Origin: Escherichia phage vB_EcoS-Ro145clw | Sequence record: MG852086.2 | Reading direction: 5' to 3' (one strand) | DNA: 42,031 bases | Shown: positions 25,084-42,031 of the stretch, one piece after another | Layout of the letters: each line of letters starts with the position of its first letter | How positions within the stretch are numbered: position 1 is the first letter of the stretch | The notes under the pieces: generated by a model | Databases searched by the model: none | What the model was told of the DNA's origin: nothing | What the model saw: the letters and a program-made list of their open reading frames with translations, nothing else | Made by a program: the position numbers and the translations under genes

Positions 25084-25351
25084 TCCGTACCTCCCACTGG
25101 TCAATTAAATGCCGCGTCTGGTGCTGGCAGTGCATAGCCCACCCATACATCGACTCGAAGACATAAAAGTCAGGTTTGGCGAAGGTCGTTCGCTTAATCT
25201 GCGACACGCGGCGACCTATATCTTTAGGGCGCGGTACTTTGCCTAAGTACGCCATCTCTTCCATCCGGTGCGCACCTGACGGCGCACGCAACAGCCACAA
25301 CGCCTCTGTGTTATCCCGCCTGTCGATGGCGCGGTAGAGTTGGTAAATCAT
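25055..25351 (-). CDS. hypothetical protein (98 aa)
   Basis: SD GAGGT 9 nt upstream; overlaps exonuclease start by about 29 nt. Confidence 0.4.
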   Translation of the reverse strand: MIYQLYRAIDRRDNTEALWLLRAPSGAHRMEEMAYLGKVPRPKDIGRRVSQIKRTTFAKPDFYVFESMYGWAMHCQHQTRHLIDQWEVRNDFKRTRRQ

Positions 25352-25371
25352 AATTCCGAACCTCAGTTAAA

Positions 25372-25387
25372 GCGGCCCGAAGGCCGC
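25372..25387 (-). terminator. weak hairpin GCGGCC CGAA GGCCGC (possible attenuator)
   Basis: Perfect 6 bp stem; only a short U-run on the minus strand. Confidence 0.3.
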
Positions 25388-25394
25388 AGGATAG

Positions 25395-25895
25395 TTATTC
25401 TTCTTCGAAATATTTGTTCTTGATTGCCGTCAGGCGTTCCAGATATTCAGCCAAGTCTTCGTCTTTAATCGCCGCAATCTTCATCTTCTTACCTGTGAAC
25501 TCTTCCAGCAGTTCATCGGAATCGTCGCACGCGGCATCGCTCGGACCTTCATTAATTGCATCGTCGATGGCCTGAATCTGGTCACGCAGAGACTGGTAAT
25601 CGACTTCTTCCTTCCCTTCTTCCGGCTCTGGCTCTGGCTGCTCTACTTTAGCTTTACGCGGCTTGCGTTTTGGCTTCTCTTCTTCTGCTGATTTAGTGTC
25701 GACGATGTCTTCACCTTCGACCGGGATTTCTTTTGTTGCTTCTTTTGCGCACTCGTCTACCGCTTCTTTGGTATACATTACCGTCTCTACTTCTAGTGGC
25801 GCGGCAACCCGAACAACTTGTTTCGCGCTGTTCGCAGCAATCAGTTCATGTGCAACTACGAAACGTTCCAGTAATTTTAAGAATTGGTCTAACAT
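25395..25895 (-). CDS. highly acidic early protein (function unknown; DNA-mimic candidate)
   Basis: 166 aa very rich in Glu/Asp with Pro-Glu repeats (EQPEPEPEEGKEE); first gene downstream of promoter site F. Confidence 0.5.
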   Translation of the reverse strand: MLDQFLKLLERFVVAHELIAANSAKQVVRVAAPLEVETVMYTKEAVDECAKEATKEIPVEGEDIVDTKSAEEEKPKRKPRKAKVEQPEPEPEEGKEEVDYQSLRDQIQAIDDAINEGPSDAACDDSDELLEEFTGKKMKIAAIKDEDLAEYLERLTAIKNKYFEEE

Positions 25896-25926
25896 TTGTT
25901 TCTCTCCTCTCGTTTGGTATGGGCTA

Positions 25927-25956
25927 ACTATAATAGCTGACTATTCATGATGTCAA
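25927..25956 (-). promoter_or_regulatory. sigma70-like promoter TTGACA-N18-TATAGT containing AATAG-N4-CTATT (site F)
   Basis: Minus strand reads TTGACATCATGAATAGTCAGCTATTATAGT; divergent from the XRE gene. Confidence 0.5.
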
Positions 25957-25976
25957 TGGGCTTTTCTAAAATAATT

Positions 25977-25990
25977 AATATGGTACTATT
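25977..25990 (+). promoter_or_regulatory. operator-like AATAT-GGTA-CTATT overlapping a TGgTACTAT extended -10 (site G) upstream of XRE gene
   Basis: One mismatch from the AATAG-N4-CTATT consensus; weak -35; about 30 nt upstream of ATG 26021. Confidence 0.35.
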
Positions 25991-26020
25991 CACATATCAA
26001 CTGACTAAGGAGTGATTAAC

Positions 26021-26236
26021 ATGCAACCATCTGAACTAGGCATCCGTGTAGAACAGCGCCGTAAAGAACTCGGCATCTCCCAGCGCCGTCTGGCTGTCCT
26101 GACGGGAGTTTCTCAGGGCGCAATTAATCAGCTTGCACTCGGAGTAACTCAGGACGTCCGCCCGGCAACGCTGTTTAAACTGGCGGAAGTGCTGGAAGTA
26201 GACGCCAAGTGGCTGGCGTTAGGTGAAGGGGCTTAA
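26021..26236 (+). CDS. XRE-family (Cro/CI-type) HTH transcriptional regulator
   Basis: 71 aa from ATG 26021 with SD AAGGAG; ELGISQRRLAVLTGVSQGAINQLALG is a textbook HTH_XRE motif. Confidence 0.75.
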   Translation: MQPSELGIRVEQRRKELGISQRRLAVLTGVSQGAINQLALGVTQDVRPATLFKLAEVLEVDAKWLALGEGA

Positions 26237-26250
26237 TGCCCCTTTCTTTT
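26226..26250 (+). terminator. intrinsic terminator after XRE gene
   Basis: AAGGGGC TTAAT GCCCCTT followed by TCTTTTT; stop codon lies in the loop. Confidence 0.6.
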
Positions 26251-26253
26251 TAC

Positions 26254-28494: not shown

Positions 28495-28552
28495 GTTGTG
28501 TTTCCTTCAGCAAGTAATTTGGCCTCGGCGTTCACCGCGTCGGGGCTTTCTT

Positions 28553-28786
28553 TTATTCCAGGTCTTCTAAAGTAGCGGTCATTCCGCGAACTTCTGCAAC
28601 AGCGCTATATTTCCCGCCAACGTTTTTTACGACACCGGATTTAACCAGCACGCGTAACGACGCTTCAATAATGGCGGAACTATAGTACTTAAAATAACTG
28701 CGGCGCAAGTCAAGAACACTACACGACCCTTTTTTACGTGTAAGCGAAACTACCGCCGTAAATACTCGTGACTGGAACTCTGTCAT
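28553..28786 (-). CDS. hypothetical protein (77 aa) ending in LEDLE
   Basis: ORF coupled to upstream AlpA-like gene; shares the C-terminal DLE tail with primase and exonuclease. Confidence 0.4.
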   Translation of the reverse strand: MTEFQSRVFTAVVSLTRKKGSCSVLDLRRSYFKYYSSAIIEASLRVLVKSGVVKNVGGKYSAVAEVRGMTATLEDLE

Positions 28787-28953
28787 TTCACATTCTCCTT
28801 AATCCACGCTTCCACTTTATCCGGGTCAAACGTACCTGGCTGACGGCGGCCCATAATGCGGATACAGCAATCAGGGAACTTCCCACTCTTTAACCAGTTA
28901 TTCAGCGTTCGACGAGTAACCCCGATACGCTCGGCTACCTCATTCTGCGTCAT
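28783..28953 (-). CDS. AlpA/Xis-like HTH DNA-binding protein
   Basis: 56 aa from ATG 28953 (SD GAGGG); MTQNEVAERIGVTRRTLNNWLKSGKFP...VEAWI fits the AlpA-type HTH pattern. Confidence 0.55.
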   Translation of the reverse strand: MTQNEVAERIGVTRRTLNNWLKSGKFPDCCIRIMGRRQPGTFDPDKVEAWIKENVK

Positions 28954-28985
28954 TCTCAAACCCTCATTATCAGTTAACGAAACCA

Positions 28986-29014
28986 AGTATACATTGCGAA
29001 TAATGGGAAATCAA
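28986..29014 (-). promoter_or_regulatory. sigma70-like promoter TTGATT-N17-TATACT
   Basis: Minus strand reads TTGATTTCCCATTATTCGCAATGTATACT about 30 nt upstream of ATG 28953. Confidence 0.45.
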
Positions 29015-29293
29015 ACATAATCTCACCTATTGACATTACGGAAATCTTCGTTTAAGGTGCTTCTATATCTTAGTTACTTTGATTCCTGTTCACCTTGTAA
29101 AACCCGCCGAAAACGAGCGCACAACGCGAAGTGTTAGGCGGCAGTTTACTGAACATTCGAATTATCGTAACTTCCCTTCCTTAGTATCTCAGTTGCCCTG
29201 GGCAAGCTCTATTCTCATCGGCAGCATATCTCTTAAGTAACTGATTTTTTTAATGTGCTGTAGATTCGCAACCGTAAAAATGTAACGATTATT

Positions 29294-29317
29294 GGGCAGG
29301 CTTAAGGCCTGCCCTTT
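29294..29317 (+). other. GC hairpin GGGCAGGC TTAAG GCCTGCCC followed by TTT inside long intergenic region
   Basis: Perfect 8 bp stem; no gene upstream on the plus strand. Confidence 0.35.
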
Positions 29318-29384
29318 AGTTACCAAGTAATAAGAATAAAGGCACATCCCTACCTGAAGAATCACAACGGCAACGAATCTTTGC

Positions 29385-29413
29385 TTGCATACCCCAATAT
29401 AATAGGCTACTAT
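29385..29413 (+). promoter_or_regulatory. sigma70-like promoter TTGCAT-N17-TACTAT with AATAG-GCTA-CTATT (site C)
   Basis: TTGCATACCCCAATATAATAGGCTACTATTCACTT; near-identical to site A; about 30 nt upstream of ATG 29448. Confidence 0.5.
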
Positions 29414-29447
29414 TCACTTATCGAAACGAGACAGAGGGGTGAGGGTT

Positions 29448-29633
29448 ATGTTTAAGAAGGGTCAGTTGGTCAGGGACAAACAAACCGGCGATTTATTCGA
29501 GGTAATAGAATCGAATTTAATGTGGTTTGGTTTTGTAGAGGTTAATAGCGCGGCGGGCTACGGAAAGGGTTTACTTCGTAAGTGCGATTTAGAACTCATC
29601 GGCAACAATTTTAAATTCAAAGGGGCGAAGTGA
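29448..29633 (+). CDS. hypothetical early protein (61 aa)
   Basis: ATG with SD GAGGGG/GAGGG; first gene after promoter site C. Confidence 0.45.
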   Translation: MFKKGQLVRDKQTGDLFEVIESNLMWFGFVEVNSAAGYGKGLLRKCDLELIGNNFKFKGAK

Positions 29634-29887
29634 TGGAAGAATTAATTTGTATTGAATCTGAACCAGATGTGCAGGGTTGGTTTGTAAAAGGTAACAAGTA
29701 TTCGTCTGGAGTATATTACGACGGCCGTCGATACGTTTTAGATGAAGACGGTGATGAATGGGATTTAGAGGACGCGGTTGGAGGAACTTTAACTATTAGT
29801 TTCTTCAATGCTGTTGCCGCCTCATTCACAACGGCATCGAATCATGATGCGAGTGCCGACGACTCTGAGGGAGGTTGCCGTGAATAA
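29633..29887 (+). CDS. hypothetical acidic early protein (84 aa)
   Basis: ATG overlaps upstream stop (TGATG); acidic. Confidence 0.45.
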   Translation: MEELICIESEPDVQGWFVKGNKYSSGVYYDGRRYVLDEDGDEWDLEDAVGGTLTISFFNAVAASFTTASNHDASADDSEGGCRE

Positions 29888-29947
29888 TTACCCGTTTATT
29901 TTAATTGTCAGCGCCGTTTATGTGGCGCACGCGTTATGGGGGTTGGT

Positions 29948-30112
29948 ATGAGAGAAGCATTTGAACGCTGGGCCGTAGTCGAGGGGCTGCCGGTTAACAA
30001 GGGTTCGAAGAAAGAGTACCTGAACGTTAAGACGCGTCTCGCGTGGCGGGCGTGGAAAGCTGGCGTTCGAACTGCGATGAATAAGGAGGTGAAACATGAG
30101 CGAGTGGATTAA
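29948..30112 (+). CDS. small hypothetical protein (54 aa)
   Basis: SD GGGGG 5 nt upstream; overlaps next gene start by 17 nt; below cut-off. Confidence 0.3.
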   Translation: MREAFERWAVVEGLPVNKGSKKEYLNVKTRLAWRAWKAGVRTAMNKEVKHERVD

Positions 30113-30305
30113 GTGTAGTGAGCAGATGCCACCTAAAATGACCGGAGTTCTGGTTGCTACTGAGTTCTGGCATAAAGGTGACTGGCGTATGAAGTGGGCT
30201 ACTTATGTGCCTGGGCATCCGGATGCTGACGATGGGTGGCTGATTCCTGGTGCTTCCTGGAAGCCATCACACTGGATGCCGTTACCAGAGCCACCGGAAG
30301 TGTGA
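30096..30305 (+). CDS. DUF551-like small phage protein
   Basis: 69 aa; strong SD AAGGAGGTG; N-terminal WIKCSEQMPP and C-terminal HWMPLPEPP resemble the DUF551 family. Confidence 0.5.
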   Translation: MSEWIKCSEQMPPKMTGVLVATEFWHKGDWRMKWATYVPGHPDADDGWLIPGASWKPSHWMPLPEPPEV

Positions 30306-30337
30306 TGTTCAATAGTTTGGGATTTTACTGAGTGACT

Positions 30338-30375
30338 TACGCTGCTACACAGCAGCGTATCATTTTTCTCATTTT
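30338..30375 (+). terminator. intrinsic terminator
   Basis: ACGCTGCT ACAC AGCAGCGT followed by ATCATTTTTCTCATTTTT. Confidence 0.55.
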
Positions 30376-30429
30376 TGTTCTATTTCACCAAACGCAACAA
30401 TCGACGAGACTATTGCAGGAGATGCAACA

Positions 30430-30606
30430 ATGAAAACGTTCACAGAGAAACTTATGGAGTGCGTTGCGAAGCGAGATGCTGCGGCTCGTAGTTACCGTAA
30501 ATGCGCCAACTGCGGCAGCGGGCAGGTACAGTTAATCTCGTACCTGGGCGACTCGGTTACGCATAAGTGTCGAAAGTGCTGTCACGTGAATGCGCAACCC
30601 CAATAA
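30430..30606 (+). CDS. small zinc-ribbon-like protein (58 aa)
   Basis: SD AGGAG 9 nt upstream; CANCG ... CRKCC pattern; below cut-off. Confidence 0.4.
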   Translation: MKTFTEKLMECVAKRDAAARSYRKCANCGSGQVQLISYLGDSVTHKCRKCCHVNAQPQ

Positions 30607-30613
30607 AATTTAC

Positions 30614-30642
30614 TTGCACACTTGAATAGAATAGGCTACTAT
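30614..30642 (+). promoter_or_regulatory. sigma70-like promoter TTGCAC-N17-TACTAT with AATAG-GCTA-CTATT (site D)
   Basis: TTGCACACTTGAATAGAATAGGCTACTATTCATTT; leader then GAGAGGAGAGACAGAG before ATG 30673. Confidence 0.5.
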
Positions 30643-30672
30643 TCATTTACACGAACGAGAGGAGAGACAGAG

Positions 30673-30822
30673 ATGGTTACTTTGATGGTTATGGAGTTTG
30701 AAAACAGCGCAGCAACTTACCGCGAGATTACTATGGTGCAGGCGTATCACCTGGCCTCAAACGGCAACTTCTACAAGGCTCAAATCATCAATGAGTTTGG
30801 GGTAATTGACTATGAATTTTAA
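30673..30822 (+). CDS. hypothetical early protein (49 aa)
   Basis: ATG with SD GAGAGGAG; first gene after promoter site D. Confidence 0.4.
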   Translation: MVTLMVMEFENSAATYREITMVQAYHLASNGNFYKAQIINEFGVIDYEF

Positions 30823-31081
30823 CAGTTACACCGTGACTGTTGATTTTGAGGGGCTGGAGTTGCCCCTCCCTAACAACTACCGGTACATAACTCGAGACCG
30901 TTTCGGGTTTATCCAGGGGTGGCGTAACAAACCAACAGACACTGAGTTCGGGATGTCAGGAGGGGAAGAGTTGCCGATTACTTTTGGGCATCAGAGTAGC
31001 AACGAAGAACTTAAAACGGTGATTCGTAAGTATCGCCGCCGTAACACCGGGCTTATCGCAATAACAGGCGCTGCTGAATAA
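30812..31081 (+). CDS. hypothetical protein (89 aa)
   Basis: ATG 30812 overlapping upstream gene end; no motif. Confidence 0.4.
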   Translation: MNFNSYTVTVDFEGLELPLPNNYRYITRDRFGFIQGWRNKPTDTEFGMSGGEELPITFGHQSSNEELKTVIRKYRRRNTGLIAITGAAE

Positions 31082-31100
31082 GCTAGAGGAGAGACAGAAG

Positions 31101-31211
31101 ATGAAAGATTATAGCGAAGTAACTTTAGGTGAGTTGCAGGACGAGTACGAAGATACGCTGTACCCGTTCATCTGCGACGGAGATTACAACGGCGTCTATA
31201 ACGGGGAGTGA
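31101..31211 (+). CDS. small acidic hypothetical protein (36 aa)
   Basis: SD AGGAGAGACAGA (same leader motif as 30657..30672); below cut-off. Confidence 0.3.
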   Translation: MKDYSEVTLGELQDEYEDTLYPFICDGDYNGVYNGE

Positions 31212-31216
31212 AGAAT

Positions 31217-31579
31217 ATGAGTAACAAAAACGAAGTATTCGAGTACCTGATTGACCAACTACGGCAACAGGTAAACAGCAATCAGTGCGAAGACCTGGCG
31301 CACGAGGTGCAGTCACTTAAGAATCAGTTACGCGATGCGTCGGCGCTGGTGGCTGAGTTACAGAGTGAGTTGCAGCATCAGATTGACCTGGCGGCGGGTG
31401 TGTATAGATGGTCTACCGCATATTTCGACGAGAAAGGTAAAGTCACCAGGGTGGAGCGCGGGGTTAAGAGCGAGCAATCAGGTTGCCGTAAAGAAGATAC
31501 ACAGGAATGCGGGCATGATTGGTACTTTTACGATAAAGGCACATCGATGATGTGCAAGAAATGCGGGCTGAAGAAATGA
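31217..31579 (+). CDS. coiled-coil protein with C-terminal zinc-ribbon-like motif
   Basis: 120 aa from ATG 31217 (SD GGGGAG); CRKED..C-H ... CKKCG. Confidence 0.45.
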   Translation: MSNKNEVFEYLIDQLRQQVNSNQCEDLAHEVQSLKNQLRDASALVAELQSELQHQIDLAAGVYRWSTAYFDEKGKVTRVERGVKSEQSGCRKEDTQECGHDWYFYDKGTSMMCKKCGLKK

Positions 31580-31779
31580 CCAGCATCTTATTTATCTGGG
31601 TATTATACGCGGGCCAGATGCAACTAGCGGCATCAGAAACGTTTTACTCGATGGAGGCGTGCCAGTCAGCGGCACGCGCCGCAGAGAACGCGCACTTCCT
31701 GTTTCAGGGAGACAAGCCCAACGATTCAGAGGTGCGCGCTATCTGCTCACCTAAGCGACTTGGTAAACAGGAGAAGTAA
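31576..31779 (+). CDS. hypothetical protein with N-terminal hydrophobic/signal-like segment (67 aa)
   Basis: ATGA overlap with upstream gene; MTSILFIWVLYAGQMQLAAS hydrophobic N-terminus. Confidence 0.4.
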   Translation: MTSILFIWVLYAGQMQLAASETFYSMEACQSAARAAENAHFLFQGDKPNDSEVRAICSPKRLGKQEK

Positions 31780-31781
31780 TT

Positions 31782-31964
31782 ATGGTACAGAGATATAGCT
31801 ACAACCCGATGTTCGGGTTTACTCCTGATGTTGAAGGCGGGTTAGTGCTTTACGAAGATTACGTGAAACTCGAAGCCGAGTTACAGAAATACAAAGACCA
31901 GTTCCCTGATTACGTCGAGTGCGCTAATTGTGGGTCGGTTACACATGTGGAAGGGGTGGAGTGA
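31782..31964 (+). CDS. hypothetical protein (60 aa)
   Basis: ORF with C-terminal CANCG motif; coupled to neighbours. Confidence 0.4.
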   Translation: MVQRYSYNPMFGFTPDVEGGLVLYEDYVKLEAELQKYKDQFPDYVECANCGSVTHVEGVE

Positions 31965-32257
31965 TGTCGTTAGCAACTGACATCCTGAAACGAAGCGGCC
32001 TCGCGCCGCTGTCACCAAGAGCGAACACCCAGATATACAAGCGCCGCCGTAACGCGCTGTTCCCTGAGATTCAGGCCAGACTCAAAGCTGTCCGCGCCTG
32101 TGGATTCCAGAACGGGAAGGCCGTGAATCTCGGTGAGTTTAAAACAAAGGAACGAGCGGCAATCGCTAATCGGCTATTTAATTACTGGAAATCGCTCGGG
32201 TATGAAGATATTCCGACGAAACCACAGAGACGACAATACATCTGGAGACACAAATAA
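31964..32257 (+). CDS. hypothetical basic protein (97 aa)
   Basis: ATG 31964 overlaps upstream stop (TGATG); Arg/Lys-rich. Confidence 0.4.
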   Translation: MSLATDILKRSGLAPLSPRANTQIYKRRRNALFPEIQARLKAVRACGFQNGKAVNLGEFKTKERAAIANRLFNYWKSLGYEDIPTKPQRRQYIWRHK

Positions 32258-32287
32258 ACCGTTATTAAGATAATTCCTAACCGTGCT

Positions 32288-32327
32288 ATCCTCCAGTTAC
32301 TGCATACTTAATACGCACCTGGAGGAT
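32288..32327 (+). promoter_or_regulatory. stem-loop sequestering the holin ribosome-binding site
   Basis: ATCCTCCAG (32288..32296) pairs perfectly with CTGGAGGAT (32319..32327), which contains the SD GGAGGA for the TTG start at 32333. Confidence 0.35.
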
Positions 32328-32332
32328 TCATC

Positions 32333-32641
32333 TTGGATAAACTTACTGAAACAGTGACAGGCTGGCTTCTGGCTGCCGCACTCGCCGGAGGGGTAATCGG
32401 ACTACGACAACATAAGTCCGCTATTTCCGGCCCTATTGACGGATTCTGCTTTATTGCAACTGGCTTCACCTGCGCCGTATTTGGTGCGCCCCTCGCCGCT
32501 CAATGGTTTGGAATCACGGGCGAGCGCGAAATCGCTGGCCTTGGCTTCATTATCGCTATTCTCTGGATGCCTATCTATTCCCGTCTCTCCGGTATCGTCG
32601 CTGGAGAATACATCGCACGTCGAGGAGGCACAGATGAATGA
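32333..32641 (+). CDS. holin (putative, about 3 transmembrane segments)
   Basis: 102 aa, TTG start with SD GGAGGA 6 nt upstream; three hydrophobic segments and charged C-terminus; immediately upstream of endolysin cassette. Confidence 0.5.
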   Translation: MDKLTETVTGWLLAAALAGGVIGLRQHKSAISGPIDGFCFIATGFTCAVFGAPLAAQWFGITGEREIAGLGFIIAILWMPIYSRLSGIVAGEYIARRGGTDE

Positions 32642-32906
32642 GTTATTCTGGTTCGGCGGTATGCTGGCAATCGGAGGCACATCGCTGTTTAATGTGTATC
32701 ACCCCAGCGTGGACGACGGGCTATTCGGTCGGGTGCTCTATATCCTGACCGCTATTGTCTGCGCCGCCGGATGTATCCACCTGTTACAGGGCAGTATGTC
32801 ACCTACGCTGCCTGAGACATTAATCACATTAGTTGCGCTGCGTCAGATTCGTCATGCGTGGCTGTCGTACGGAGGACATAAGCGTGTCTCGAAACATTTC
32901 AGATAA
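32634..32906 (+). CDS. second small membrane protein of the lysis cassette (holin/antiholin-like, putative)
   Basis: 90 aa from ATG 32634 with SD GAGGAGG 5 nt upstream; two hydrophobic segments. Confidence 0.4.
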   Translation: MNELFWFGGMLAIGGTSLFNVYHPSVDDGLFGRVLYILTAIVCAAGCIHLLQGSMSPTLPETLITLVALRQIRHAWLSYGGHKRVSKHFR

Positions 32907-33372
32907 TGGGCTGCATTTCACCGCCGCGTTCGAGGGGTTCCGCGGGGCCGCCTACCGCGCTACGCCGAACGAGAAGTACCTGACGATAGGCTATGGGCAC
33001 TACGGGCCGGACGTAACACCTGGCAAGACCATCACCCCCGGGCAAGGCCTCCTGCTACTTAATCGTGATATGGCTAAGGCTGCAGCTGCGGTTGATGCTG
33101 CAGCGCACCATTCGCTGACACAGGCACAGTTCGACGCTGTGTGTGACCTGGTCTATAATGCAGGTGCAGGTGTGATTGCAGCTACCACCGGCACGGGTAA
33201 GGCGCTGCGCTCGGGGGATATTGCAACGCTGCGGGCTAAGCTGGCGCTGTTTATCAACCAGAACGGCAAGCCGTTACTCGGCCTGCGGCGCCGTACTGCC
33301 GGACGTCTTGCACTGTTCGACGGTAAACTGTGGCAGGAGGCCGAGGCTATTGGGCGCGCGGTGAAAGGTTGA
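32884..33372 (+). CDS. endolysin, T4-lysozyme-like glycoside hydrolase (GH24)
   Basis: 162 aa from GTG 32884 with SD GGAGGA 7 nt upstream; FEGFRGAAYRATPNEKYLTIGYGH matches the lysozyme catalytic Glu ... TIGxGH motif. Confidence 0.75.
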   Translation: MSRNISDNGLHFTAAFEGFRGAAYRATPNEKYLTIGYGHYGPDVTPGKTITPGQGLLLLNRDMAKAAAAVDAAAHHSLTQAQFDAVCDLVYNAGAGVIAATTGTGKALRSGDIATLRAKLALFINQNGKPLLGLRRRTAGRLALFDGKLWQEAEAIGRAVKG

Positions 33373-33437
33373 CACCTGAGACTAATCCGACGATACTTAA
33401 ATCACCTCCTGTTTCATCCCTCTGCTCTCCAGTTTTA

Positions 33438-33469
33438 TCCCGGCCCTGACCCAGCCGGGATTTTTTTTT
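33438..33469 (+). terminator. strong intrinsic terminator after endolysin
   Basis: TCCCGGC CCTGACCCA GCCGGGA followed by nine T. Confidence 0.7.
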
Positions 33470-33491
33470 ATCTATTTTCTGTAATGACTAG

Positions 33492-33520
33492 TTGACTATT
33501 ACCTACGACCCTATTATATT
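33492..33520 (+). promoter_or_regulatory. sigma70-like promoter TTGACT-N17-TATATT
   Basis: TTGACTATTACCTACGACCCTATTATATT upstream of the small-gene string starting at 33554. Confidence 0.45.
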
Positions 33521-33553
33521 TACTTCATCGACAACGAGAACGGAGTAGAGAAG

Positions 33554-33631
33554 ATGAGTAACTTCCATAATGAGCATGTGATGCAGTTCTATCGTCATAA
33601 TCTGAAAACTAAAGGAGTGTTTGGGAAATGA
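33554..33631 (+). CDS. tiny hypothetical ORF (25 aa)
   Basis: SD GGAG upstream; stop overlaps next start (ATGA); very short so weakly supported. Confidence 0.25.
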
Positions 33632-33777
33632 AAATCACAGATATCGAAGCATTCAAAGACGCACAACTGATGGCACGCATCGCCGTCAATAACCTGAGCA
33701 GCAATATCCCGGCTGACGCGTTCTGGGCCGCCGCGATGCGGGTACTGAAAGCAGCTTATGTAGGAGAGAAGAAATGA
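33628..33777 (+). CDS. small hypothetical protein (49 aa)
   Basis: SD AAGGAG; ATGA coupling on both sides; antisense to the rejected minus ORF 33686..34192. Confidence 0.35.
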
Positions 33778-33944
33778 GCGAAGAAATTAGAGAACGAAGT
33801 AAAGTACTTCTACCGTTGTGGGTGGGATATAAAGTCGGCCACACCCCGTTCCCAACACGTGAGGAACTGATGAAACGTAACAGTTTCCCGGGGCCGGACA
33901 AGAACAAGTATCTCAATCGCATGTGGGGAGAGCGTAAAGAATGA
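33774..33944 (+). CDS. small hypothetical protein (56 aa)
   Basis: ATGA coupling on both sides. Confidence 0.35.
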   Translation: MSEEIRERSKVLLPLWVGYKVGHTPFPTREELMKRNSFPGPDKNKYLNRMWGERKE

Positions 33945-34186
33945 CTGACCGTGAATACGAAAAGATGATGGTAGAGGCGGTTAACGGCGGCGTAGACATC
34001 GGTCACGTGATGCACGTCCTGAATACTAAAATCGCGGTAGCGGAGCAAATGGTTGAGTCGCTTTATGAGACCCGCCGCGAACTGATTAACCGCTTCAACC
34101 TGAACAAGTGCGAACATGAGTTCGACTACAATCCGAAGGATATGTGCGGGCAGTGTATTAAATGCGGGGTACAGCGTCATGCCTAA
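33941..34186 (+). CDS. small zinc-ribbon-like protein (81 aa)
   Basis: CEHEF ... CGQCIKCG motif; coupled starts. Confidence 0.45.
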   Translation: MTDREYEKMMVEAVNGGVDIGHVMHVLNTKIAVAEQMVESLYETRRELINRFNLNKCEHEFDYNPKDMCGQCIKCGVQRHA

Positions 34187-34457
34187 AATCACAATCGCAT
34201 CACTCGAGCGCCGTATTATGGTGCTTGAGTCAGAGAAACAGACGTTAGGCGGGCAACTGTCAATTAACGGTGAGTTTCAACTGGAGGCGTTTAAGCAGTT
34301 ACTCACATTAACGGCGGACATAGAAAATATTGTCGCCCTTCTAGAGTCAGGGGAATGGGGCGAGCATTGCGCAGAATCGGAGTTAGGCCAACGGCTTGAG
34401 TCGGAGATTACTAACATGCTTAGTGGTCTTGGGTGGTCGCCAGATGAAAGCACCTGA
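34179..34457 (+). CDS. hypothetical protein (92 aa)
   Basis: ATG 34179 overlapping upstream gene end; helical prediction by eye. Confidence 0.4.
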   Translation: MPKITIASLERRIMVLESEKQTLGGQLSINGEFQLEAFKQLLTLTADIENIVALLESGEWGEHCAESELGQRLESEITNMLSGLGWSPDEST

Positions 34458-34626
34458 GCCAGTAGTTATCGATGGCGTCCTGTGGAAACCTTACTCGGTT
34501 AACCACATCGACGCCGACGGGAAGAAGTTTAGCTTCTACATTTTTGCAATTAGCCGTGAGCACGCCGCTTGTGTGGTTGACGATATACGAGAAACGGCGT
34601 GGCTTGGTGATGAGATAGTGGGGTGA
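34444..34626 (+). CDS. hypothetical protein (60 aa)
   Basis: ATG 34444 in frame with ORF-track ORF 34396..34626. Confidence 0.4.
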   Translation: MKAPEPVVIDGVLWKPYSVNHIDADGKKFSFYIFAISREHAACVVDDIRETAWLGDEIVG

Positions 34627-34630
34627 GAGT

Positions 34631-34714
34631 ATGAGTCTTGGAGTGGTTATTGGTCTGGTCGGTCTTAGTTACTTCATTGGGTTATTGGTTGGATTTCTGT
34701 GGGGTAGATACTAA
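34631..34714 (+). CDS. tiny hydrophobic peptide (27 aa)
   Basis: SD GGGGTGAGAG upstream; stop overlaps next start (TAATG); single hydrophobic helix. Confidence 0.25.
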   Translation: MSLGVVIGLVGLSYFIGLLVGFLWGRY

Positions 34715-34995
34715 TGGCACGTACCGTTGCCGCGAGATTCACTGATATTGAATCTGCGATAGAAGAAGCTGTTTATAATAAATTCTGCAACCCCTCTGCT
34801 ACGCACAACTACGGAGTTATTGTTAAATACGGCAAGTTTGAAATTAGGAGAGTTCGCACCGGTCGCCCGCACGAGTTTTTATGGACAACAGAAAGCCTAG
34901 TCCCGCGGTGCCACATTTACACAAGCGGCGCACATACGATTTTTGTAGACCTTAACAAGAAAGATATTACCGTCACTAAAGGAGAGACAAATTGA
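34714..34995 (+). CDS. hypothetical protein (93 aa)
   Basis: ORF with coupled start; no motif. Confidence 0.4.
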   Translation: MARTVAARFTDIESAIEEAVYNKFCNPSATHNYGVIVKYGKFEIRRVRTGRPHEFLWTTESLVPRCHIYTSGAHTIFVDLNKKDITVTKGETN

Positions 34996-35228
34996 TTACC
35001 AGCATTCCTAAACTGATTGAAGAGTACGGAAGTATGTCGGAGACCTGCCGACAAACCGGTATCTGCGAAATGACGATTGCCAAGTACAGCAAAGACGTGA
35101 ACTGCGAGCGCCACGTAATTTATAACAACCGTCTGATGACGCACGTTAAGACAAGCCCGGTGTTATTCACGCGCCGCGGTATCACTAAAACTGAGCAACG
35201 TATTGCTAAAGAGGAGAGTGGGGGATGA
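34992..35228 (+). CDS. hypothetical protein, possible HTH (78 aa)
   Basis: TTG start with SD AAGGAGAGACA; SMSETCRQTGICEMTIAKYS is HTH-like. Confidence 0.4.
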   Translation: MITSIPKLIEEYGSMSETCRQTGICEMTIAKYSKDVNCERHVIYNNRLMTHVKTSPVLFTRRGITKTEQRIAKEESGG

Positions 35229-35407
35229 TTGATATTTTGAGGGCTACAAATGCTGCCGGTGACCTGGTGTTTTGGTTGGCCTTTCTCGGTGTGCTGATAA
35301 AACAACCGACTTTGTTTAACGTTATTCCTCGCTATCTGTGGTGGCCTATGTTTTTAGGCATGGGAGTATCAGGAGTGGCTGGTATCCTTTTGTGGTTTTT
35401 CAAATGA
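35225..35407 (+). CDS. small membrane protein (60 aa, two hydrophobic segments)
   Basis: ATGA-type coupling; hydrophobic. Confidence 0.4.
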   Translation: MIDILRATNAAGDLVFWLAFLGVLIKQPTLFNVIPRYLWWPMFLGMGVSGVAGILLWFFK

Positions 35408-35510
35408 GGCTACTAATCATCCCGAACGCCTGGGCTATCGCTGTAGCTAACGACCATTACGGCGGCGACGGTAAAAGAGCACCACGACACGGCCTATATA
35501 ACTGATACAA

Positions 35511-35530
35511 GCCCTCTACGGAGGGCTTTT
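35511..35530 (+). terminator. intrinsic terminator closing the early plus-strand block
   Basis: GCCCTC TACG GAGGGC followed by TTTT. Confidence 0.6.
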
Positions 35531-35531
35531 C

Positions 35532-35561
35532 TGTACATCCCGCCTAATCCCCTTATATAAT
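35532..35561 (+). promoter_or_regulatory. possible promoter TGTACA-N18-TATAAT upstream of TerS
   Basis: Perfect -10 TATAAT at 35556..35561; weak -35. Confidence 0.3.
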
Positions 35562-35626
35562 CCCTTTAGACGCGTAGGGCGCGTCTGGTGCGCTCTGATG
35601 GTCAGACGCATATGCAAGGGGATTAT

Positions 35627-36172
35627 ATGAAGCTGAAACTCAAGCAGCCATCGCCAGAGGTGGTGCAAGCTGCGCATGAAGAAGCTGTTAGCGCGAACCG
35701 TCGCCGTAAACGGCCGCGCGGTAAACAGAGCCTTTATCAATCGTCCCGTAATTCCGCTGCGTTGTGGGACCCGGACTATTGTGACGAATTGATTCGTTTC
35801 TTCGACCGCACGTCATGGGAACTTGTGCCTACGTCCAAAGGTGACGAACGCCCGCTGATTCAGGATAAGCCACCGTCACTGGCCCGCTTTGCCTTACACA
35901 TCGGCGTCACTATCCCGATTATTAAGCTGTGGCTGCGTGAGATTCCCGCATTTGCAGAAGCCTATGAAACTGCACAGGCGCTGGAAGAGGCGTACTTCAC
36001 TGAGACAGGCGCGGCGGGCATCTCCGCTACGTTTGCCGCTGCGAAGCTGGGCCTTAGCAAAGAGAAACCGGTTGAATCCACCGAAAAAACGGCGCCGACT
36101 GAGATTATTTTCAGTGTTGCAGAGCCTGTAGGTAAAATCGTAACAACGAATATGGGCGAGGTAGAGGAATGA
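35627..36172 (+). CDS. terminase small subunit (putative)
   Basis: 181 aa from ATG 35627 with SD AAGGGG; basic N-terminus; immediately upstream of and overlapping TerL start. Confidence 0.55.
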   Translation: MKLKLKQPSPEVVQAAHEEAVSANRRRKRPRGKQSLYQSSRNSAALWDPDYCDELIRFFDRTSWELVPTSKGDERPLIQDKPPSLARFALHIGVTIPIIKLWLREIPAFAEAYETAQALEEAYFTETGAAGISATFAAAKLGLSKEKPVESTEKTAPTEIIFSVAEPVGKIVTTNMGEVEE

Positions 36173-37419
36173 GTATTCAGCTATCCGCCCCTCAGGCGCT
36201 GTTTCTTAATTGCGATAACAAATACAAAGCCTACGTCGGCGGCTTCGGCAGCGGCAAAACATTTGTTGGCTGCCTAGACCTGCTTACGTTTATGCTTAAG
36301 CATCCCGGTACACGCCTTGGCTACTTTGGACCAACATATCCGGCTATCCGAGACATCTTCTATCCGACATTCGAGGAAGCGGCTAACCTGCTAGGCCTCG
36401 ATGTGCTTGTTAAATCTGGGGACAAAGAGGTAGTGGTTACCCGTGGTAAGACAGTGCTCGGGACAGTTATCTGCCGGTCGATGGATAACCCAGGCTCGAT
36501 AGTCGGCTTCAAAATCGCGGCTGCGGTCGTGGATGAGCTCGATGTATTGAGTCGCGAGAAAGCTGAGCTGGCGTGGAACAAAATCGTAGCCCGTATGCGT
36601 CTGGTCATCCCGGGCGTAATCAACCACATCTCCGTAACCACGACACCGGAAGGATTCAAGTTCGTCTACGCCAAGTTCAAAGAGAACCCGACGCCGAGCT
36701 ACTCTATGGTGCAGGCATCAACTCATGAGAACGCCAGATTCCTGCCGCCGGATTATATTAGCTCGCTGACAGAGACTTACCCGGCGCAGTTGATTAACGC
36801 ATATCTTAACGGTGAGTTCGTCAACCTGACATCCGGCAGCGTGTATTACGCATACGACCGCCGTAAGCATCGCAGCAAAGAGACAATTCAGCCTGGCGAC
36901 ACGCTGTACATCGGGCAGGACTTCAACGTTACGAAGAATGCCAGCGCCGTGTATGTGCAACGTAAAGACGGCTGGCACGCGGTAGCGGAACTGAAAGGAC
37001 TGTTCGATACGCCGGACACCGTGCGCGTAATTACTGAGAAGTGGAAGTCACAAGGCCACCGCATCGTCGTTTACCCTGACGCCAGCGGCAAGAACCGCAA
37101 GACCAACTCGGCGTCAATCTCTGATATTGCATTACTCCAGCAGGCCGGGTTCGATGTGCGGGCTAAATCAGCCAACCCGCCGGTTAAGGACCGTGTTTTA
37201 GCCGTGAATACCGCGCTGGAAAAAGGTAAGCTGTGGGTTAACGACCACTTATGCCCCGAGATAGCCAAGACGCTGGAGCAACAGGCATATGACGATAACG
37301 GAGAGCCAGCTAAAGACGGCATCATTGACCATATGGCAGATGCGCTCGGCTATCCTGTAGTTTACGAGATGCCAGTGGTTAAACCAGTAATCAACATCCC
37401 GGTGACTTTCGCACTTTAA
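36169..37419 (+). CDS. terminase large subunit
   Basis: 416 aa; Walker A GGFGSGKT, Walker B AAAVVDELD; C-terminal nuclease-like region; ATGA overlap with TerS. Confidence 0.85.
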   Translation: MSIQLSAPQALFLNCDNKYKAYVGGFGSGKTFVGCLDLLTFMLKHPGTRLGYFGPTYPAIRDIFYPTFEEAANLLGLDVLVKSGDKEVVVTRGKTVLGTVICRSMDNPGSIVGFKIAAAVVDELDVLSREKAELAWNKIVARMRLVIPGVINHISVTTTPEGFKFVYAKFKENPTPSYSMVQASTHENARFLPPDYISSLTETYPAQLINAYLNGEFVNLTSGSVYYAYDRRKHRSKETIQPGDTLYIGQDFNVTKNASAVYVQRKDGWHAVAELKGLFDTPDTVRVITEKWKSQGHRIVVYPDASGKNRKTNSASISDIALLQQAGFDVRAKSANPPVKDRVLAVNTALEKGKLWVNDHLCPEIAKTLEQQAYDDNGEPAKDGIIDHMADALGYPVVYEMPVVKPVINIPVTFAL

Positions 37420-37431
37420 GAGGATTATTCA

Positions 37432-38907
37432 ATGTTAACTATGAACGGTCAGAATCAGGGTGTTAAGACGAAACACCAGGAATGGCTGCATCACTTCGAT
37501 AAATGGCAGAAGGTACGTCACGCACTGGAAGGCGACCTTATTCGCTATCTGCGCAACGTCGGGAAGAACGAGCCTGACCCGACCTACGCGGCACAGCGCC
37601 AGGAAGAATATGAGAACGGCGCTATCTGCTACAACTTCACTAAACGTACCCTGGCGGGGATGGTCGGCAGTGTCATGCGCAAAGACCCTGAGCAGATTAT
37701 CCCCCCTGAACTTGAGTACCTGTTACGCAATGCTGATGGTTCCGGTGTCGGGCTGTGGCAGCACGCACAGGATACTTTGATGGAGATTGACTCGGTGGGC
37801 CGTGGCGGGCTGCTGGTGGACGCCCCTGAGACAGCTGCGGCAACGGCAGCAGAACAGAACGCAGGATTATTAAACCCGGTCATTGCATTCTACACCACGG
37901 AGAACATCATCAACTGGCGACTGACACGCGTCGGTTCAGTCAACCGTGTGACTATGGTCGTGCTGCGTGAGGTATGGGAATACTCAGAACCGGGGGCAGA
38001 GTTTGAAACCAAGTTCGGTGAACAGTTCCGCGTCCTCGACCTGATTGATGGTCGTTACCGCCAACGCATCTATCGCTTCGATGTCGAAGGCGGCGCTCAG
38101 GACGAAGTAATCGAAATATTCCCGGAACTCGGCGAACAGTTACGTGGCAAAATCCCGTTCACGTTTATTGGCGCAAGCAACAACGACGCCACTATCGACG
38201 ATGCGCCTTTGCTGCCGTTGGCCGAGCTAAACATAGGACACTTCAGAAATTCGGCTGATGTGGAAGAGGCCAGCTTTATAGTAGGCCAGCCCACTCTGTT
38301 CATCGCCCCCGGCGATAATATGAGCATGGAGCAATGGAAAGAAGCCAACCCCCACGGCATCCGCATGGGGTCGCGTTCTGGTCACAACATTGGCTACGGC
38401 GGCACTGCGTTTCTGGTTCAGGCGGCGGAAACTAACCTCGCCAAACAGAACATGCTGGATAAAGAGAATCAGGCCATCCAGATTGGCGCACAGCTTATTA
38501 CCCCGACGCAACAAATCACCGCTGAATCGGCCCGCCTGCAACGAGGTGCGGATACGTCCGTTATGGCGACAATCGCACGCAACGTAAGCATGGCGTACAC
38601 CGATGCGCTACGCTGGGTAGCTGCGATGCTTGGGCTTCGTGAGGATACTGAGATTGAGTTCAAGCTGAATATGGAGTTCTTCCTGCAACCGATGACCGCC
38701 CAGGACCGTGCTCAGTGGATGGCCGACATCAACGCCGGTCTGTTACCAGCTACCGCTTACTACGCGGCATTGCGCAAGGCGGGTGTAACTGACTGGACAG
38801 ATGAGGATATTCAGAACGCTATTGAAGACGCGCCGCTGCCGGTTTTTACACAGACTACCGGGGAAATTCCGGCTACAGCACAGCAGGATGAAGAGGCGCA
38901 GCAATGA
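37432..38907 (+). CDS. portal protein (putative)
   Basis: 491 aa directly after TerL and before MuF-like gene; acidic C-terminus; positional plus size. Confidence 0.65.
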   Translation: MLTMNGQNQGVKTKHQEWLHHFDKWQKVRHALEGDLIRYLRNVGKNEPDPTYAAQRQEEYENGAICYNFTKRTLAGMVGSVMRKDPEQIIPPELEYLLRNADGSGVGLWQHAQDTLMEIDSVGRGGLLVDAPETAAATAAEQNAGLLNPVIAFYTTENIINWRLTRVGSVNRVTMVVLREVWEYSEPGAEFETKFGEQFRVLDLIDGRYRQRIYRFDVEGGAQDEVIEIFPELGEQLRGKIPFTFIGASNNDATIDDAPLLPLAELNIGHFRNSADVEEASFIVGQPTLFIAPGDNMSMEQWKEANPHGIRMGSRSGHNIGYGGTAFLVQAAETNLAKQNMLDKENQAIQIGAQLITPTQQITAESARLQRGADTSVMATIARNVSMAYTDALRWVAAMLGLREDTEIEFKLNMEFFLQPMTAQDRAQWMADINAGLLPATAYYAALRKAGVTDWTDEDIQNAIEDAPLPVFTQTTGEIPATAQQDEEAQQ

Positions 38908-39959
38908 GCAAGCTATCGCAGATGATTATCAGCCATCAAATATGGCTACAGAGACTAGGAACGCAAACAGCGTCGCTGTCCGTCCCCTTCGTCAATAAGA
39001 TGCGTGCGGAGGTGCGCGACGCGGTGCTTAAGTTCGGTGACGACGCGCGCACAGTGAAGAAGCTGAATAAAATGCTGACAAGCCTGGATGGCGTGCTGGA
39101 TGACGTCACCGGCGATTGGAAGAGCACGATAGAGAAGAGCCTTCGCGAGATTGCCGACTACGAGAATAAGTGGTTTATCCATACGCTGGAGGCCAACACG
39201 AAGCCGAAAACGTTTATTACCGGACCTACGGCAGAAGAACTGTGGTCGCGTATCAAGTTCGCACCACTGGCGATGGGTAACTCACCTGTCGGCGTTATGG
39301 ACCTGATGTCAGGCTGGGCGCAGACCGAGCGTAACCGCCTTGTGCGCGGCGTACAGACCGGCTTTGTGCAGGGGCAGACAACCCACCAAATTGTCTCTGC
39401 CGTTGTGGGCCCCGGTGGCCTGGCCGATATATCTGAGCGCAACGTAATGACGGTAGTCCGAACAGCAGTGAGTCACGTATCGAACACGGCGCGAGACTCT
39501 GTGTACGACAGCAACAGCGATATTGTGAGCAAATATCAGTGGGTATCTACGCTCGACAGCCGTACTTCGACTGTATGTAAGTCGCGCGACGGCCAGAAAT
39601 ATGACATAGGTAGAGGGCCGATGCCCCCCGCCCATCCGAACTGCCGCAGTACCACTATCCCGGTAATCGAAGATGACTTCCTGGACTTTCTCGACGAGGG
39701 GGCTAAGCGGGCGGCTAAGGGTGCGGACGGCGGTACTCAGGTAAGCGCAGACACCACCTATTACGAGTTCCTGAAGCAACAACCGGCATGGTTTCAGGAC
39801 CAGGCGCTCGGCCCTGTTCGCGGTAAGATTTTCCGCGGCAGCGGTATATCGCCGGAAGAGTTTCGCGTAATATCTGTAGATGGTTTCGGGAATCCGCTCA
39901 CGCTTAAGCAGATGGCGGAACTCGATAAACGTGTTGCTGATTATCTGAAAGGGGAATAA
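38904..39959 (+). CDS. head morphogenesis protein (Mu F / SPP1 gp7-like)
   Basis: 351 aa; QWVSTLDSRTSTVCKSRDGQKY resembles the conserved Mu-F core; ATGA overlap with portal. Confidence 0.6.
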   Translation: MSKLSQMIISHQIWLQRLGTQTASLSVPFVNKMRAEVRDAVLKFGDDARTVKKLNKMLTSLDGVLDDVTGDWKSTIEKSLREIADYENKWFIHTLEANTKPKTFITGPTAEELWSRIKFAPLAMGNSPVGVMDLMSGWAQTERNRLVRGVQTGFVQGQTTHQIVSAVVGPGGLADISERNVMTVVRTAVSHVSNTARDSVYDSNSDIVSKYQWVSTLDSRTSTVCKSRDGQKYDIGRGPMPPAHPNCRSTTIPVIEDDFLDFLDEGAKRAAKGADGGTQVSADTTYYEFLKQQPAWFQDQALGPVRGKIFRGSGISPEEFRVISVDGFGNPLTLKQMAELDKRVADYLKGE

Positions 39960-40420
39960 TGATGGGCTTTTTCAAAATTACTGATGTACCGTCGCGCCGC
40001 GTAGTCCAGTTTGCCCGTGTGTCTGGCTCTGGCGAGAACGTGGTGTTTATTGATGATGAAAGTGAACTGGGTACTCCTGTAGACGATATGCCGTTTGCCG
40101 ACAAGACCGGTATTGCGCTACCAGCGGCGGGTATGCTTTACGAGATTCCGTATCTGGCTGATGCAGGTGATGTTTATTTCTCGGTACAACCTAAAGATGC
40201 AGAACTGACAGACGGCAGCGCGACTATCACTGTCGAAGTTAAGGCGGGTAAAGCCCCCTATGCGCTGGCATGGTACAAAGACGGCAAGGAAGTGGTAAAT
40301 GCCCCGGAAGAGGCTTTGTCACTGACGGTTAACGCCGCGGGTGAATACTTCGTTAAAGTTACTGATGCCAATGGAGTGGAGGCGGTTAGCAAAGCGGCGA
40401 AGGTTACTAAGCCAGAATGA
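39959..40420 (+). CDS. Ig-like domain protein (structural accessory, putative)
   Basis: 153 aa; C-terminal YALAWYKDGKEV...AGEYFVKVTDANG Ig-like pattern similar to 1720..2070. Confidence 0.5.
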   Translation: MMGFFKITDVPSRRVVQFARVSGSGENVVFIDDESELGTPVDDMPFADKTGIALPAAGMLYEIPYLADAGDVYFSVQPKDAELTDGSATITVEVKAGKAPYALAWYKDGKEVVNAPEEALSLTVNAAGEYFVKVTDANGVEAVSKAAKVTKPE

Positions 40421-40423
40421 TAA

Positions 40424-40450
40424 AAGGCCCCATTATGGGGCCTTAGTTTT
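40424..40450. terminator. bidirectional terminator between convergent genes
   Basis: AAGGCCCC ATTAT GGGGCCTT with T-run on the plus side and A-rich on the other; variant of the recurring hairpin. Confidence 0.55.
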
Positions 40451-40673
40451 AAACTTCCACGTCTATCACCAAATCATCAGGCATGGTTATGACTATTTTA
40501 TCGTTTTCATAGAACGGGCTAAGAGGCTCATTTTCAGGCTGCAAACGTAAAGTTAGCTTTTTATCACCAAAATAATCTATGTAACGAACCCAGTACCACT
40601 CGTCGAATACCTGTACCTTTTCTCCGGGGCGTACATCTCTAGCCTTCTTTTGATTCGTAAATCTAATCGGCAT
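40449..40673 (-). CDS. hypothetical protein (74 aa), minus-strand single-gene island
   Basis: SD AGGAGG upstream; own promoter (site B) and terminator. Confidence 0.45.
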   Translation of the reverse strand: MPIRFTNQKKARDVRPGEKVQVFDEWYWVRYIDYFGDKKLTLRLQPENEPLSPFYENDKIVITMPDDLVIDVEV

Positions 40674-40698
40674 AAATACCTCCTGTTTAAGTTAACTG

Positions 40699-40727
40699 AA
40701 TAGTACCCTACTATATTGGGGTGTGCA
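40699..40727 (-). promoter_or_regulatory. sigma70-like promoter TTGCAC-N17-TACTAT with AGTAG-GGTA-CTATT (site B)
   Basis: Minus strand reads TTGCACACCCCAATATAGTAGGGTACTATTCAG; near-identical to site A. Confidence 0.5.
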
Positions 40728-40794
40728 AACTATTTGTTTATGTATTCCAGTTATTCCGCTCAATTGTAAATGTTGGAATAAACTATTCGAATAG

Positions 40795-40823
40795 TTGACT
40801 TTTCACTGAAAATGTGCTAAGCT
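40795..40823 (+). promoter_or_regulatory. sigma70-like promoter TTGACT-N17-TAAGCT with TG extended -10, preceded by palindrome CTATTCGAATAG
   Basis: TTGACTTTTCACTGAAAATGTGCTAAGCT; perfect 12 bp palindrome at 40783..40794. Confidence 0.45.
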
Positions 40824-40829
40824 CCACCT

Positions 40830-41026
40830 GAGCTTGTGAAGTATGAACAAGCGACCGCGGCGCGGGCAGGTAACGGAGCGGGACGTAAGTCCTGAGTGTA
40901 GTTACGCTGACGCGTTCGGAAGGGCCATACTCTATTGCTTGTGTAAAAAGTAACGGGTTTACTGAGATTACGCCGTTTCTATGTTTAAATGATAAGGCCT
41001 AGCGCCCCGCTTTATGGCGGGGCTTT
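40830..41026 (+). ncRNA. candidate small non-coding transcript (about 200 nt) between promoter and terminator
   Basis: No ORF with SD longer than about 36 codons; bounded by promoter 40795..40823 and hairpin GCCCCGC TTTATG GCGGGGC TTT at 41004..41026. Confidence 0.3.
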
Positions 41027-41047
41027 ACTTATCGAGAAAGGGGAAAC

Positions 41048-41434
41048 ATGAATCTTAAAGCAACTGTCATGGCAGGAGCATGTTTCATCATCCTGGTTTA
41101 CGCACACGGCATCTACCAGTATCGCAGCGGCTGGAACGAGGGCCGGGCGAATCTCATTTCGCAGCAACAGCAGAAAGCACAAGCTGAGTTAGCGAAGAAA
41201 ACACAACGGCAGCAGCAGGATGAATCAAAGGCCGCGGCCGCTGACAACGAAGGCAAGACGAAATCAGAGGTGATTACCCGTGAAGTCGTTAAGTACATTA
41301 AAACGCCTGGTCGCAGCGTGTGCACTTTCGACCCTGAGCGCGTGCAGCTCAAGTCCCGCGCCGTCGCAAACGCCAATTCCATCCCCGGATACGACGATGA
41401 TGCAGCCGCCGTGCAAACTGGCACCGCCAAGTAG
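41048..41434 (+). CDS. i-spanin (Rz-like, putative)
   Basis: 128 aa; SD AAAGGGGA; N-terminal transmembrane segment then Gln/Lys-rich coiled-coil-like region; contains overlapping lipoprotein ORF. Confidence 0.5.
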   Translation: MNLKATVMAGACFIILVYAHGIYQYRSGWNEGRANLISQQQQKAQAELAKKTQRQQQDESKAAAADNEGKTKSEVITREVVKYIKTPGRSVCTFDPERVQLKSRAVANANSIPGYDDDAAAVQTGTAK

Positions 41435-41543
41435 CGACGCTGACGAGGATTTGGCTGTCGACGTTCAGAACGCCGAATGCGCACGGCAATTGCGCCTGAA
41501 AGTGTTCATGTTGCAGGATTACGTGAGGAATATTCTGGAATAG
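41280..41543 (+). CDS. o-spanin (Rz1-like lipoprotein, putative), overlapping Rz in the +1 frame
   Basis: GTG start with SD GAGGTG; signal peptide ending in lipobox LSAC; Pro-rich mature region; extends past the Rz stop. Confidence 0.45.
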   Translation: MKSLSTLKRLVAACALSTLSACSSSPAPSQTPIPSPDTTMMQPPCKLAPPSSDADEDLAVDVQNAECARQLRLKVFMLQDYVRNILE

Positions 41544-41625
41544 TTGCCTTGCATGTTGGAATAATTTATTCTTGACATGTAAATCCGGGTGGCCCGGGTT
41601 CCAACGTCCAGGGGACATACTGACT

Positions 41626-42031
41626 ATGAATCGTTTTTTACGTTATCCGTTCCAGGAAGAAGCTGGGGCAGAAGATAAATCCGCCGGCGGTGACGCGCCG
41701 AAAATGTTCACCGCTGAAGAAGTTCAGGCGCTGATTGAGAAAGAAGTTGCCGGGCTTAAGGCCAATCAGGAAGCATTGCTGGCGGAGAAGAAAGAAGCTG
41801 CCCGTAAAGCAAGAGAGGCTGAAGAAGAACGGCAGCGCGCACACCAGGAGGCATTAAAAGCCGCCGGTAAGATGGACGAGTTCGAAAAGACGATTCGTAG
41901 CCAGTATGACCCGGTGTTAGCAGAGAAAGATGGTCGCATCACCAAAATGGCTGAGCGCATCCTCGGCAGCGAACGTAAAGCGGTGTTAGGCTCTTTCGCT
42001 GGTGACTTTATTACCCCGGAAGCAGTAGACA
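41626..42031 (+). CDS. scaffolding protein, N-terminal part (gene runs off the window end)
   Basis: ATG 41626 with SD GGGGA; Ala/Glu/Lys-rich helical sequence; no stop before window end; frame matches the ORF entering at 1..296. Confidence 0.5.
   Translation, partial: MNRFLRYPFQEEAGAEDKSAGGDAPKMFTAEEVQALIEKEVAGLKANQEALLAEKKEAARKAREAEEERQRAHQEALKAAGKMDEFEKTIRSQYDPVLAEKDGRITKMAERILGSERKAVLGSFAGDFITPEAVD

Follow-up and report, generated by a model that had tools for sequence, protein, structure and literature searches.

Two ends of one genome record meet inside a head scaffolding gene in Escherichia phage vB_EcoS-Ro145clw

The sequence record of Escherichia phage vB_EcoS-Ro145clw (42,031 nucleotides, analysed in full and called here the window) finishes in the middle of an open reading frame, and another open reading frame is already under way at its first base. 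Are these two halves of one gene, and if so, why is the gene interrupted? The break could reflect a physical end of the virion DNA, the edge of a fragment taken from a longer sequence, or simply the point at which a circular assembly was written out as a line. A preliminary description of the window, made from its letters alone, had favoured the last possibility and proposed that the window is an entire phage genome, circularly permuted or circularly assembled and opened at an arbitrary point.

A single gene across the two ends of the record

On the + strand, the reading frame that starts with ATG at 41626-41628 stays open to base 42031. This 5′ part (41626..42031) is 406 nt long; it comprises 135 full codons and one base of codon 136, and it exits at the end of the record. 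Bases 1 and 2 supply the rest of codon 136 (A|TT, Ile136), and the same frame continues through codons 137-233 to a TAA at 294-296, so that the 3′ part occupies 1..296 (+). Joined end to start, the two parts make an open reading frame of 702 nt, encoding 233 aa followed by a stop codon; the remaining two frames across the 42031/1 join are stop-rich. The frame open to the end with one base to spare, and its uninterrupted continuation to TAA 294-296, had both been reported in the preliminary description, and coordinates and translation agree with it. Its figure of about 234 aa stands as a length if the stop is counted, the protein itself having 233 residues. The product was also said to be rich in Ala, Glu and Lys and to be encoded immediately upstream of the capsid gene. 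The composition bears this out (37, 29 and 23 residues respectively, 38% combined), as does the position of the capsid ATG at 299, 2 bases past the TAA.

The joined protein matches the profile phrog_206 (PHROG 206, head scaffolding protein) with an E value of 2e-55. The match is a single stretch that passes over the join at residue 136 and links residues 7-230 to positions 6-262 of the 263 of the profile; its closest known counterparts are the head scaffolding proteins of Guernseyvirinae (K1ind2 gp08, SETP3 ORF9). By this profile match the split gene is a head scaffolding gene, and its predicted product is full-length. An in-frame join combined with a family match of this kind is far beyond chance. 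Pfam and NCBIfam searches with the joined protein returned sub-threshold noise only (Complex1_LYR_2, Ala-zipper lipoprotein), and a sequence search of the PDB gave chance-level matches only, with no solved structure detectable for the scaffolding protein.

The gene lies in the head module, downstream of the spanin genes and directly upstream of the major capsid gene (299..1348, +; phrog_247, E 4e-119; ORF 1 of the published annotation). The order scaffold then capsid is also found in the phages vB_EcoS-Ro145c2YLVW (hereafter Ro145c2YLVW), K1ind2, ZCEC5 and SETP3. At the nucleotide level the scaffolding gene is 93-97% identical to its counterparts in Kagunavirus and about 82% identical to those in Jerseyvirus. 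Farther upstream lies the small terminase subunit gene (35627..36172, +; phrog_3064 ‘terminase’, E 8e-74), which is directly upstream of, and overlaps, that of the large subunit TerL (36169..37419, +; Terminase_6N E 4e-21, Terminase_6C E 6e-11, phrog_2). The portal gene (37432-38907, +) and a Mu F/SPP1 gp7-like head morphogenesis gene (38904-39959, +) follow, with matches to phrog_145, phrog_241 and PF04233 for the pair taken jointly. A Hoc-like decoration protein gene assigned by PHROG (39959-40420) also lies upstream of the scaffolding gene, and two overlapping spanin genes (41048..41543 together, 41048-41434 and 41397-41543 individually, +; phrog_2536) are found just upstream of the cut gene.

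Several other features of this neighbourhood were recorded. The spanin genes sit within the head-morphogenesis module, about 8 kb from the holin-holin-endolysin cassette (32333-33372), and their placement upstream of the scaffolding gene is kept in K1ind2, ZCEC5 and SETP3. A 374-bp non-coding gap separates them from a reverse-strand ORF (40449-40673); it contains a terminator-like hairpin with a T-rich tail at 41004-41023 (+), and a second hairpin of this type is present at 40444-40424 (-). The number of terminator-like hairpins is no higher than in shuffled sequence.

Annotated start codons of the scaffolding gene vary among relatives. In Ro145c2YLVW and ZCEC5 the start is placed at the equivalent of ATG 41626, in SETP3 it is 6 nt upstream of this equivalent, and in K1ind2 it is 54 nt upstream, which corresponds to an in-frame TTG at 41572. 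Between TTG 41572 and ATG 41626 lies a 5-bp hairpin made of G and C only (CCGGGTGGCCCGG). A promoter scan of 40400-42031 detected no sigma-70-like site, the TTGACA at 41572 being without a usable -10 hexamer.

Continuity of the join and completeness of the genome

The window corresponds to the published genome of vB_EcoS-Ro145clw (MG852086; Liao et al. 2019, Antibiotics 8:74), described as 42,031 bp with 50.6% G+C (PMC6627115); our base count gives 50.57% G+C. The identification is based on length, G+C and ORF coordinates. More than 30 ORFs share both start and end with the published Table S1 (PMC6627115), which thus uses the same linearisation. Examples are 299-1348, 1408-1707, 12962-15517, 15530-17620, 20738-22915 and 26254-28494, together with 36169-37419, 37432-38907, 38904-39959, 39959-40420, 41048-41434 and 41397-41543.

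The window was compared by BLAST to the record of Escherichia phage vB_EcoS-Ro145c2YLVW (MH051334 / NC_073322; 42,145 bp, ‘complete genome’, Kagunavirus). Three blocks were obtained: window 1-13285 aligns with Ro145c2YLVW 11930-25214, window 13213-30102 with 25256-42145, and window 30103-42031 with 1-11929. All 42,031 bases are thereby accounted for, at about 99.9% identity and in the same gene order. Window bases 42031 and 1 fall on the adjacent Ro145c2YLVW bases 11929 and 11930, with nothing lost or duplicated at the join. Reciprocally, the two ends of the Ro145c2YLVW record (42145 and 1), which was opened 12 kb away from the Ro145clw opening, are adjacent in the window at 30102..30103. Since the ends of each record are contiguous inside the other, the two are linearisations of one circular map. 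In Ro145c2YLVW the scaffolding gene is intact (11524-12225, 233 aa, 3 aa differences) and annotated as ‘hypothetical protein’. The seamless join and the reciprocal rotation with this 42,145-bp genome uphold the earlier proposal of a whole genome, assembled as a circle and opened arbitrarily: the window (1..42031) is the complete unit-length genome of the virulent E. coli siphophage vB_EcoS-Ro145clw, with ORF coordinates identical to those of the published record. Judged by its genome-wide identity and collinearity with the classified Ro145c2YLVW, the phage is a Kagunavirus (Guernseyvirinae).

The two genomes differ in length only by 114 bp, which are additional in Ro145c2YLVW. There, positions 25142-25369 (window counterpart 13213-13285) carry a noisy 114-bp partial duplication that includes a stop codon. 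The tail-tip (J-like) gene, which is intact in the window (12962-15517) and encodes 851 aa, is thereby broken up into two annotated ORFs. The duplication is probably an assembly artefact in the Ro145c2YLVW record.

Outside the overlap at this 114-bp indel, 22 single-base differences separate the two genomes. They are clustered in short patches, namely window positions 8, 9, 19, 25 and 44, 3747-3781, and 35491-35533. The proximity of the first patch to the start of the record suggested contig-end errors at 8-44 as a candidate explanation. This was rejected: K1ind2, ZCEC5 and SETP3 share the window base at all five positions, and an exact 48-mer in IMG/VR, which includes window bases 1-24, carries the same base as the window at 8, 9 and 19. 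Because the relatives side with the window, Ro145c2YLVW is the outlier in this patch, and its bases there may be local errors or small recombination patches.

Continuity of the join was further examined in phage records using a 1200-nt query in which the final 600 bases of the window were followed by its first 600. It aligned in one piece and without gaps in 458 of the 483 matching records. All belong to Guernseyvirinae (Kagunavirus or Jerseyvirus), and in many of them the gene is named ‘head scaffolding protein’ or ‘scaffold protein’. K1ind2, ZCEC5 and SETP3 also show gap-free alignment over the join. An independent metagenome contig from IMG/VR (2122 bp, 92% identical) crosses it as well, the exact 48-mer mentioned above lying over it. 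The head region is 95-97% identical to those of K1ind1, K1ind2, RP180 and ZCEC5, and the genomes of relatives measure 40-46 kb.

Packaging mode and the position of the opening

The ends of virion DNA are decided by the cutting mode of the large terminase. In P22- and SPP1-type phages, headful packaging generates permuted and terminally redundant virion DNA. Circular assemblies are routine for headful-packaging phages, and the point at which such a circle is opened into a linear record is arbitrary.

The Ro145clw genome was obtained with Unicycler/SPAdes at 4350x, and PhageTerm analysis of the reads indicated headful packaging with a preferred pac site (PMC6627115). Data on relatives are available: Shashou was assigned to the pac type by PhageTerm (PMC6776780), the Jerseyvirus SeF1 was reported as headful (PMC9409062), and PhageTerm found no obvious termini in the Kagunavirus fBC-Eco01, in a paper which words the terminase in cos terms as generic text (PMC9825357). 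In addition, the RefSeq record of K1ind2 is flagged circular. A search of the literature on Jerseyvirinae for circularly permuted genomes found nothing. The circular permutation put forward in the preliminary description is therefore retained on the strength of the published headful/pac call and of these relatives.

With P22 and SPP1, the phage has in common the published headful/pac call, a circular assembly and the lack of terminal repeats, and its set of small and large terminase, portal and SPP1 gp7/Mu F-like genes is typical of headful phages of this type. The likeness is one of mechanism and not a demonstrated family membership, TerL having no detectable sequence match to its P22 and SPP1 counterparts. 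Solved terminase structures include those of P22, Sf6 and SPP1, and a search of PDB sequences with TerL gave no match to any solved terminase. Its match to the PBSX family TIGR01547 is weak (52.9 bits, under the cut-off of 105), and the relatives retrieved by tblastn are all uncharacterised phages. By itself, the TerL sequence is not enough to assign the packaging class.

TerL also varies within the subfamily. Only 73 phage records carry a TerL at least 95% identical at the amino acid level (K1G, 99.8%; Salmonella phage Jersey, 98.6%), and in most other Guernseyvirinae, ZCEC5 included, identity is about 54%. Yet the scaffold and capsid DNA of ZCEC5 is 96% identical to the window (41432-600). 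As TerL can be divergent where scaffold and capsid are similar, the packaging module appears to be mosaic and to have been exchanged within Guernseyvirinae.

Taken with the published packaging call, these observations make it very probable that the window is the complete genome of a headful phage without fixed ends, opened arbitrarily inside its head scaffolding gene. Terminase would first cut the concatemer near the pac site, the head would then be filled with DNA a little longer than the genome, and the second cut would be made without sequence specificity. Virion DNAs produced in this way would be circularly permuted, with terminal redundancy, and no one pair of ends would be common to the population. 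From short reads of such permuted DNA an assembler would build a circle and write it as a line from an arbitrary point. In Ro145clw this point would have fallen inside codon 136 of the scaffolding gene, between its first and second bases, and gene callers run on the linear record would then have missed the gene. We infer that the choice of the opening point by the assembler was arbitrary.

A genome that is complete and circularly assembled could nevertheless have fixed virion ends elsewhere (cos or short direct terminal repeats), in which case it would be arbitrarily opened and not permuted. The sequence of a circular assembly cannot by itself separate permuted from fixed-end genomes, and typing of TerL is not decisive. 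Independently, we looked at where records of relatives open, in 54 full-length genomes sampled evenly down the ranking and corrected for orientation (14 of the 54 records are in reverse orientation). The distance from record start to scaffolding gene ranges from 5.2 to 41.0 kb and falls in 31 distinct 500-bp bins, a wide spread that is expected for a group without natural ends. A cluster is nonetheless present: in 25 of these records the start falls within a single 3.5-kb zone, located 5-8.5 kb ahead of the scaffolding gene and close to or at the terminase genes. Starting phage records at the terminase genes is the usual convention, with which the clustered openings coincide, although the cluster could instead mean a real pac-proximal end. 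Against fixed ends stand the headful/pac result of PhageTerm on the Ro145clw reads themselves (PMC6627115), the pac, headful or no-termini calls for the relatives (PMC6776780, PMC9409062, PMC9825357) and the window, in which no direct repeat of at least 8 nt common to the start and end of the 42,031-bp sequence was found. We consider fixed ends elsewhere improbable.

The break might alternatively be biological, the window ends being true physical ends of the DNA or a preferred packaging cut inside the scaffolding gene. A discontinuity in coverage might have led the assembler to open the circle there; this is conceivable and has no positive evidence in its favour. Neither a repeat nor a cohesive-end-like motif was found at the 42031/1 break, and the near-identical Ro145c2YLVW, opened 12 kb away, reads straight through the site, as do 458 records in the join search. 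Pac sites are normally found in or beside the small terminase gene in P22- and SPP1-type phages, and here this usual neighbourhood is 6 kb upstream. A cut in the scaffolding gene would, if true, imply a pac-type site at an unusual location, some 6 kb downstream from the terminase genes. That the break is non-arbitrary in any of these senses, whether through a preferred packaging cut or a coverage discontinuity, is very improbable, and true physical ends or a preferred cut at this place are still harder to credit.

That the window is a piece of a larger sequence (a prophage or a longer phage genome), with an in-frame join due to coincidence or to an assembly chimera, deserves next to no credence: chance would put one random join in three in frame, but the joined protein matches its family over the full length, in one stretch over the join, all 42,031 bases are contained in a 42,145-bp complete genome, relatives are in the same size range, the published genome has an identical size (PMC6627115), and no match to the window was found among 5,426 complete E. 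coli genomes, so that a prophage fragment was rejected and the rotation of Ro145c2YLVW, the phrog_206 match and this search together refute the larger-sequence reading.

Genes missing from the published annotation

The published table runs from the capsid gene (ORF 1) to the spanin genes (ORFs 66 and 67) (PMC6627115). None of its 67 entries lies at 41626-42031 or 1-296: the scaffolding gene is absent, because the record was cut through it. The scaffolding protein was not listed by virion mass spectrometry either (PMC6627115). As the gene is not in the ORF list, this absence is uninformative if that list served as the search database.

The 67-ORF table also omits four other ORFs for which PHROG matches are strong, all on the + strand: a tail completion/Neck1 gene (3775-4173; phrog_169), unannotated in Ro145c2YLVW too, a virion structural protein gene (11603-12097; phrog_384), and ORFs matching phrog_10509 (34444-34626) and phrog_5407 (34714-34995). 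Two of the published names also look wrong in the light of profile matches. For ORF 20 (12962-15517, 851 aa; ‘tail assembly chaperone’) the matches are to the tail protein/central tail fibre J families (phrog_469, phrog_31), and for ORF 64 (39959-40420; ‘putative tail protein’) the match is to a Hoc-like head decoration protein (phrog_3945, Ig-like domain).

A split of this kind is an ordinary outcome when a headful-packaging phage is assembled. Completeness and packaging mode have, like the genome itself, already been published, and nothing in the split is biologically new. The sole practical effect of the cut site is that an essential gene, that of the scaffolding protein, is absent from the published gene list. 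Rotation of the record (e.g. to start at the small terminase gene, 35627) followed by re-annotation would restore the scaffolding gene and several other missed ORFs.
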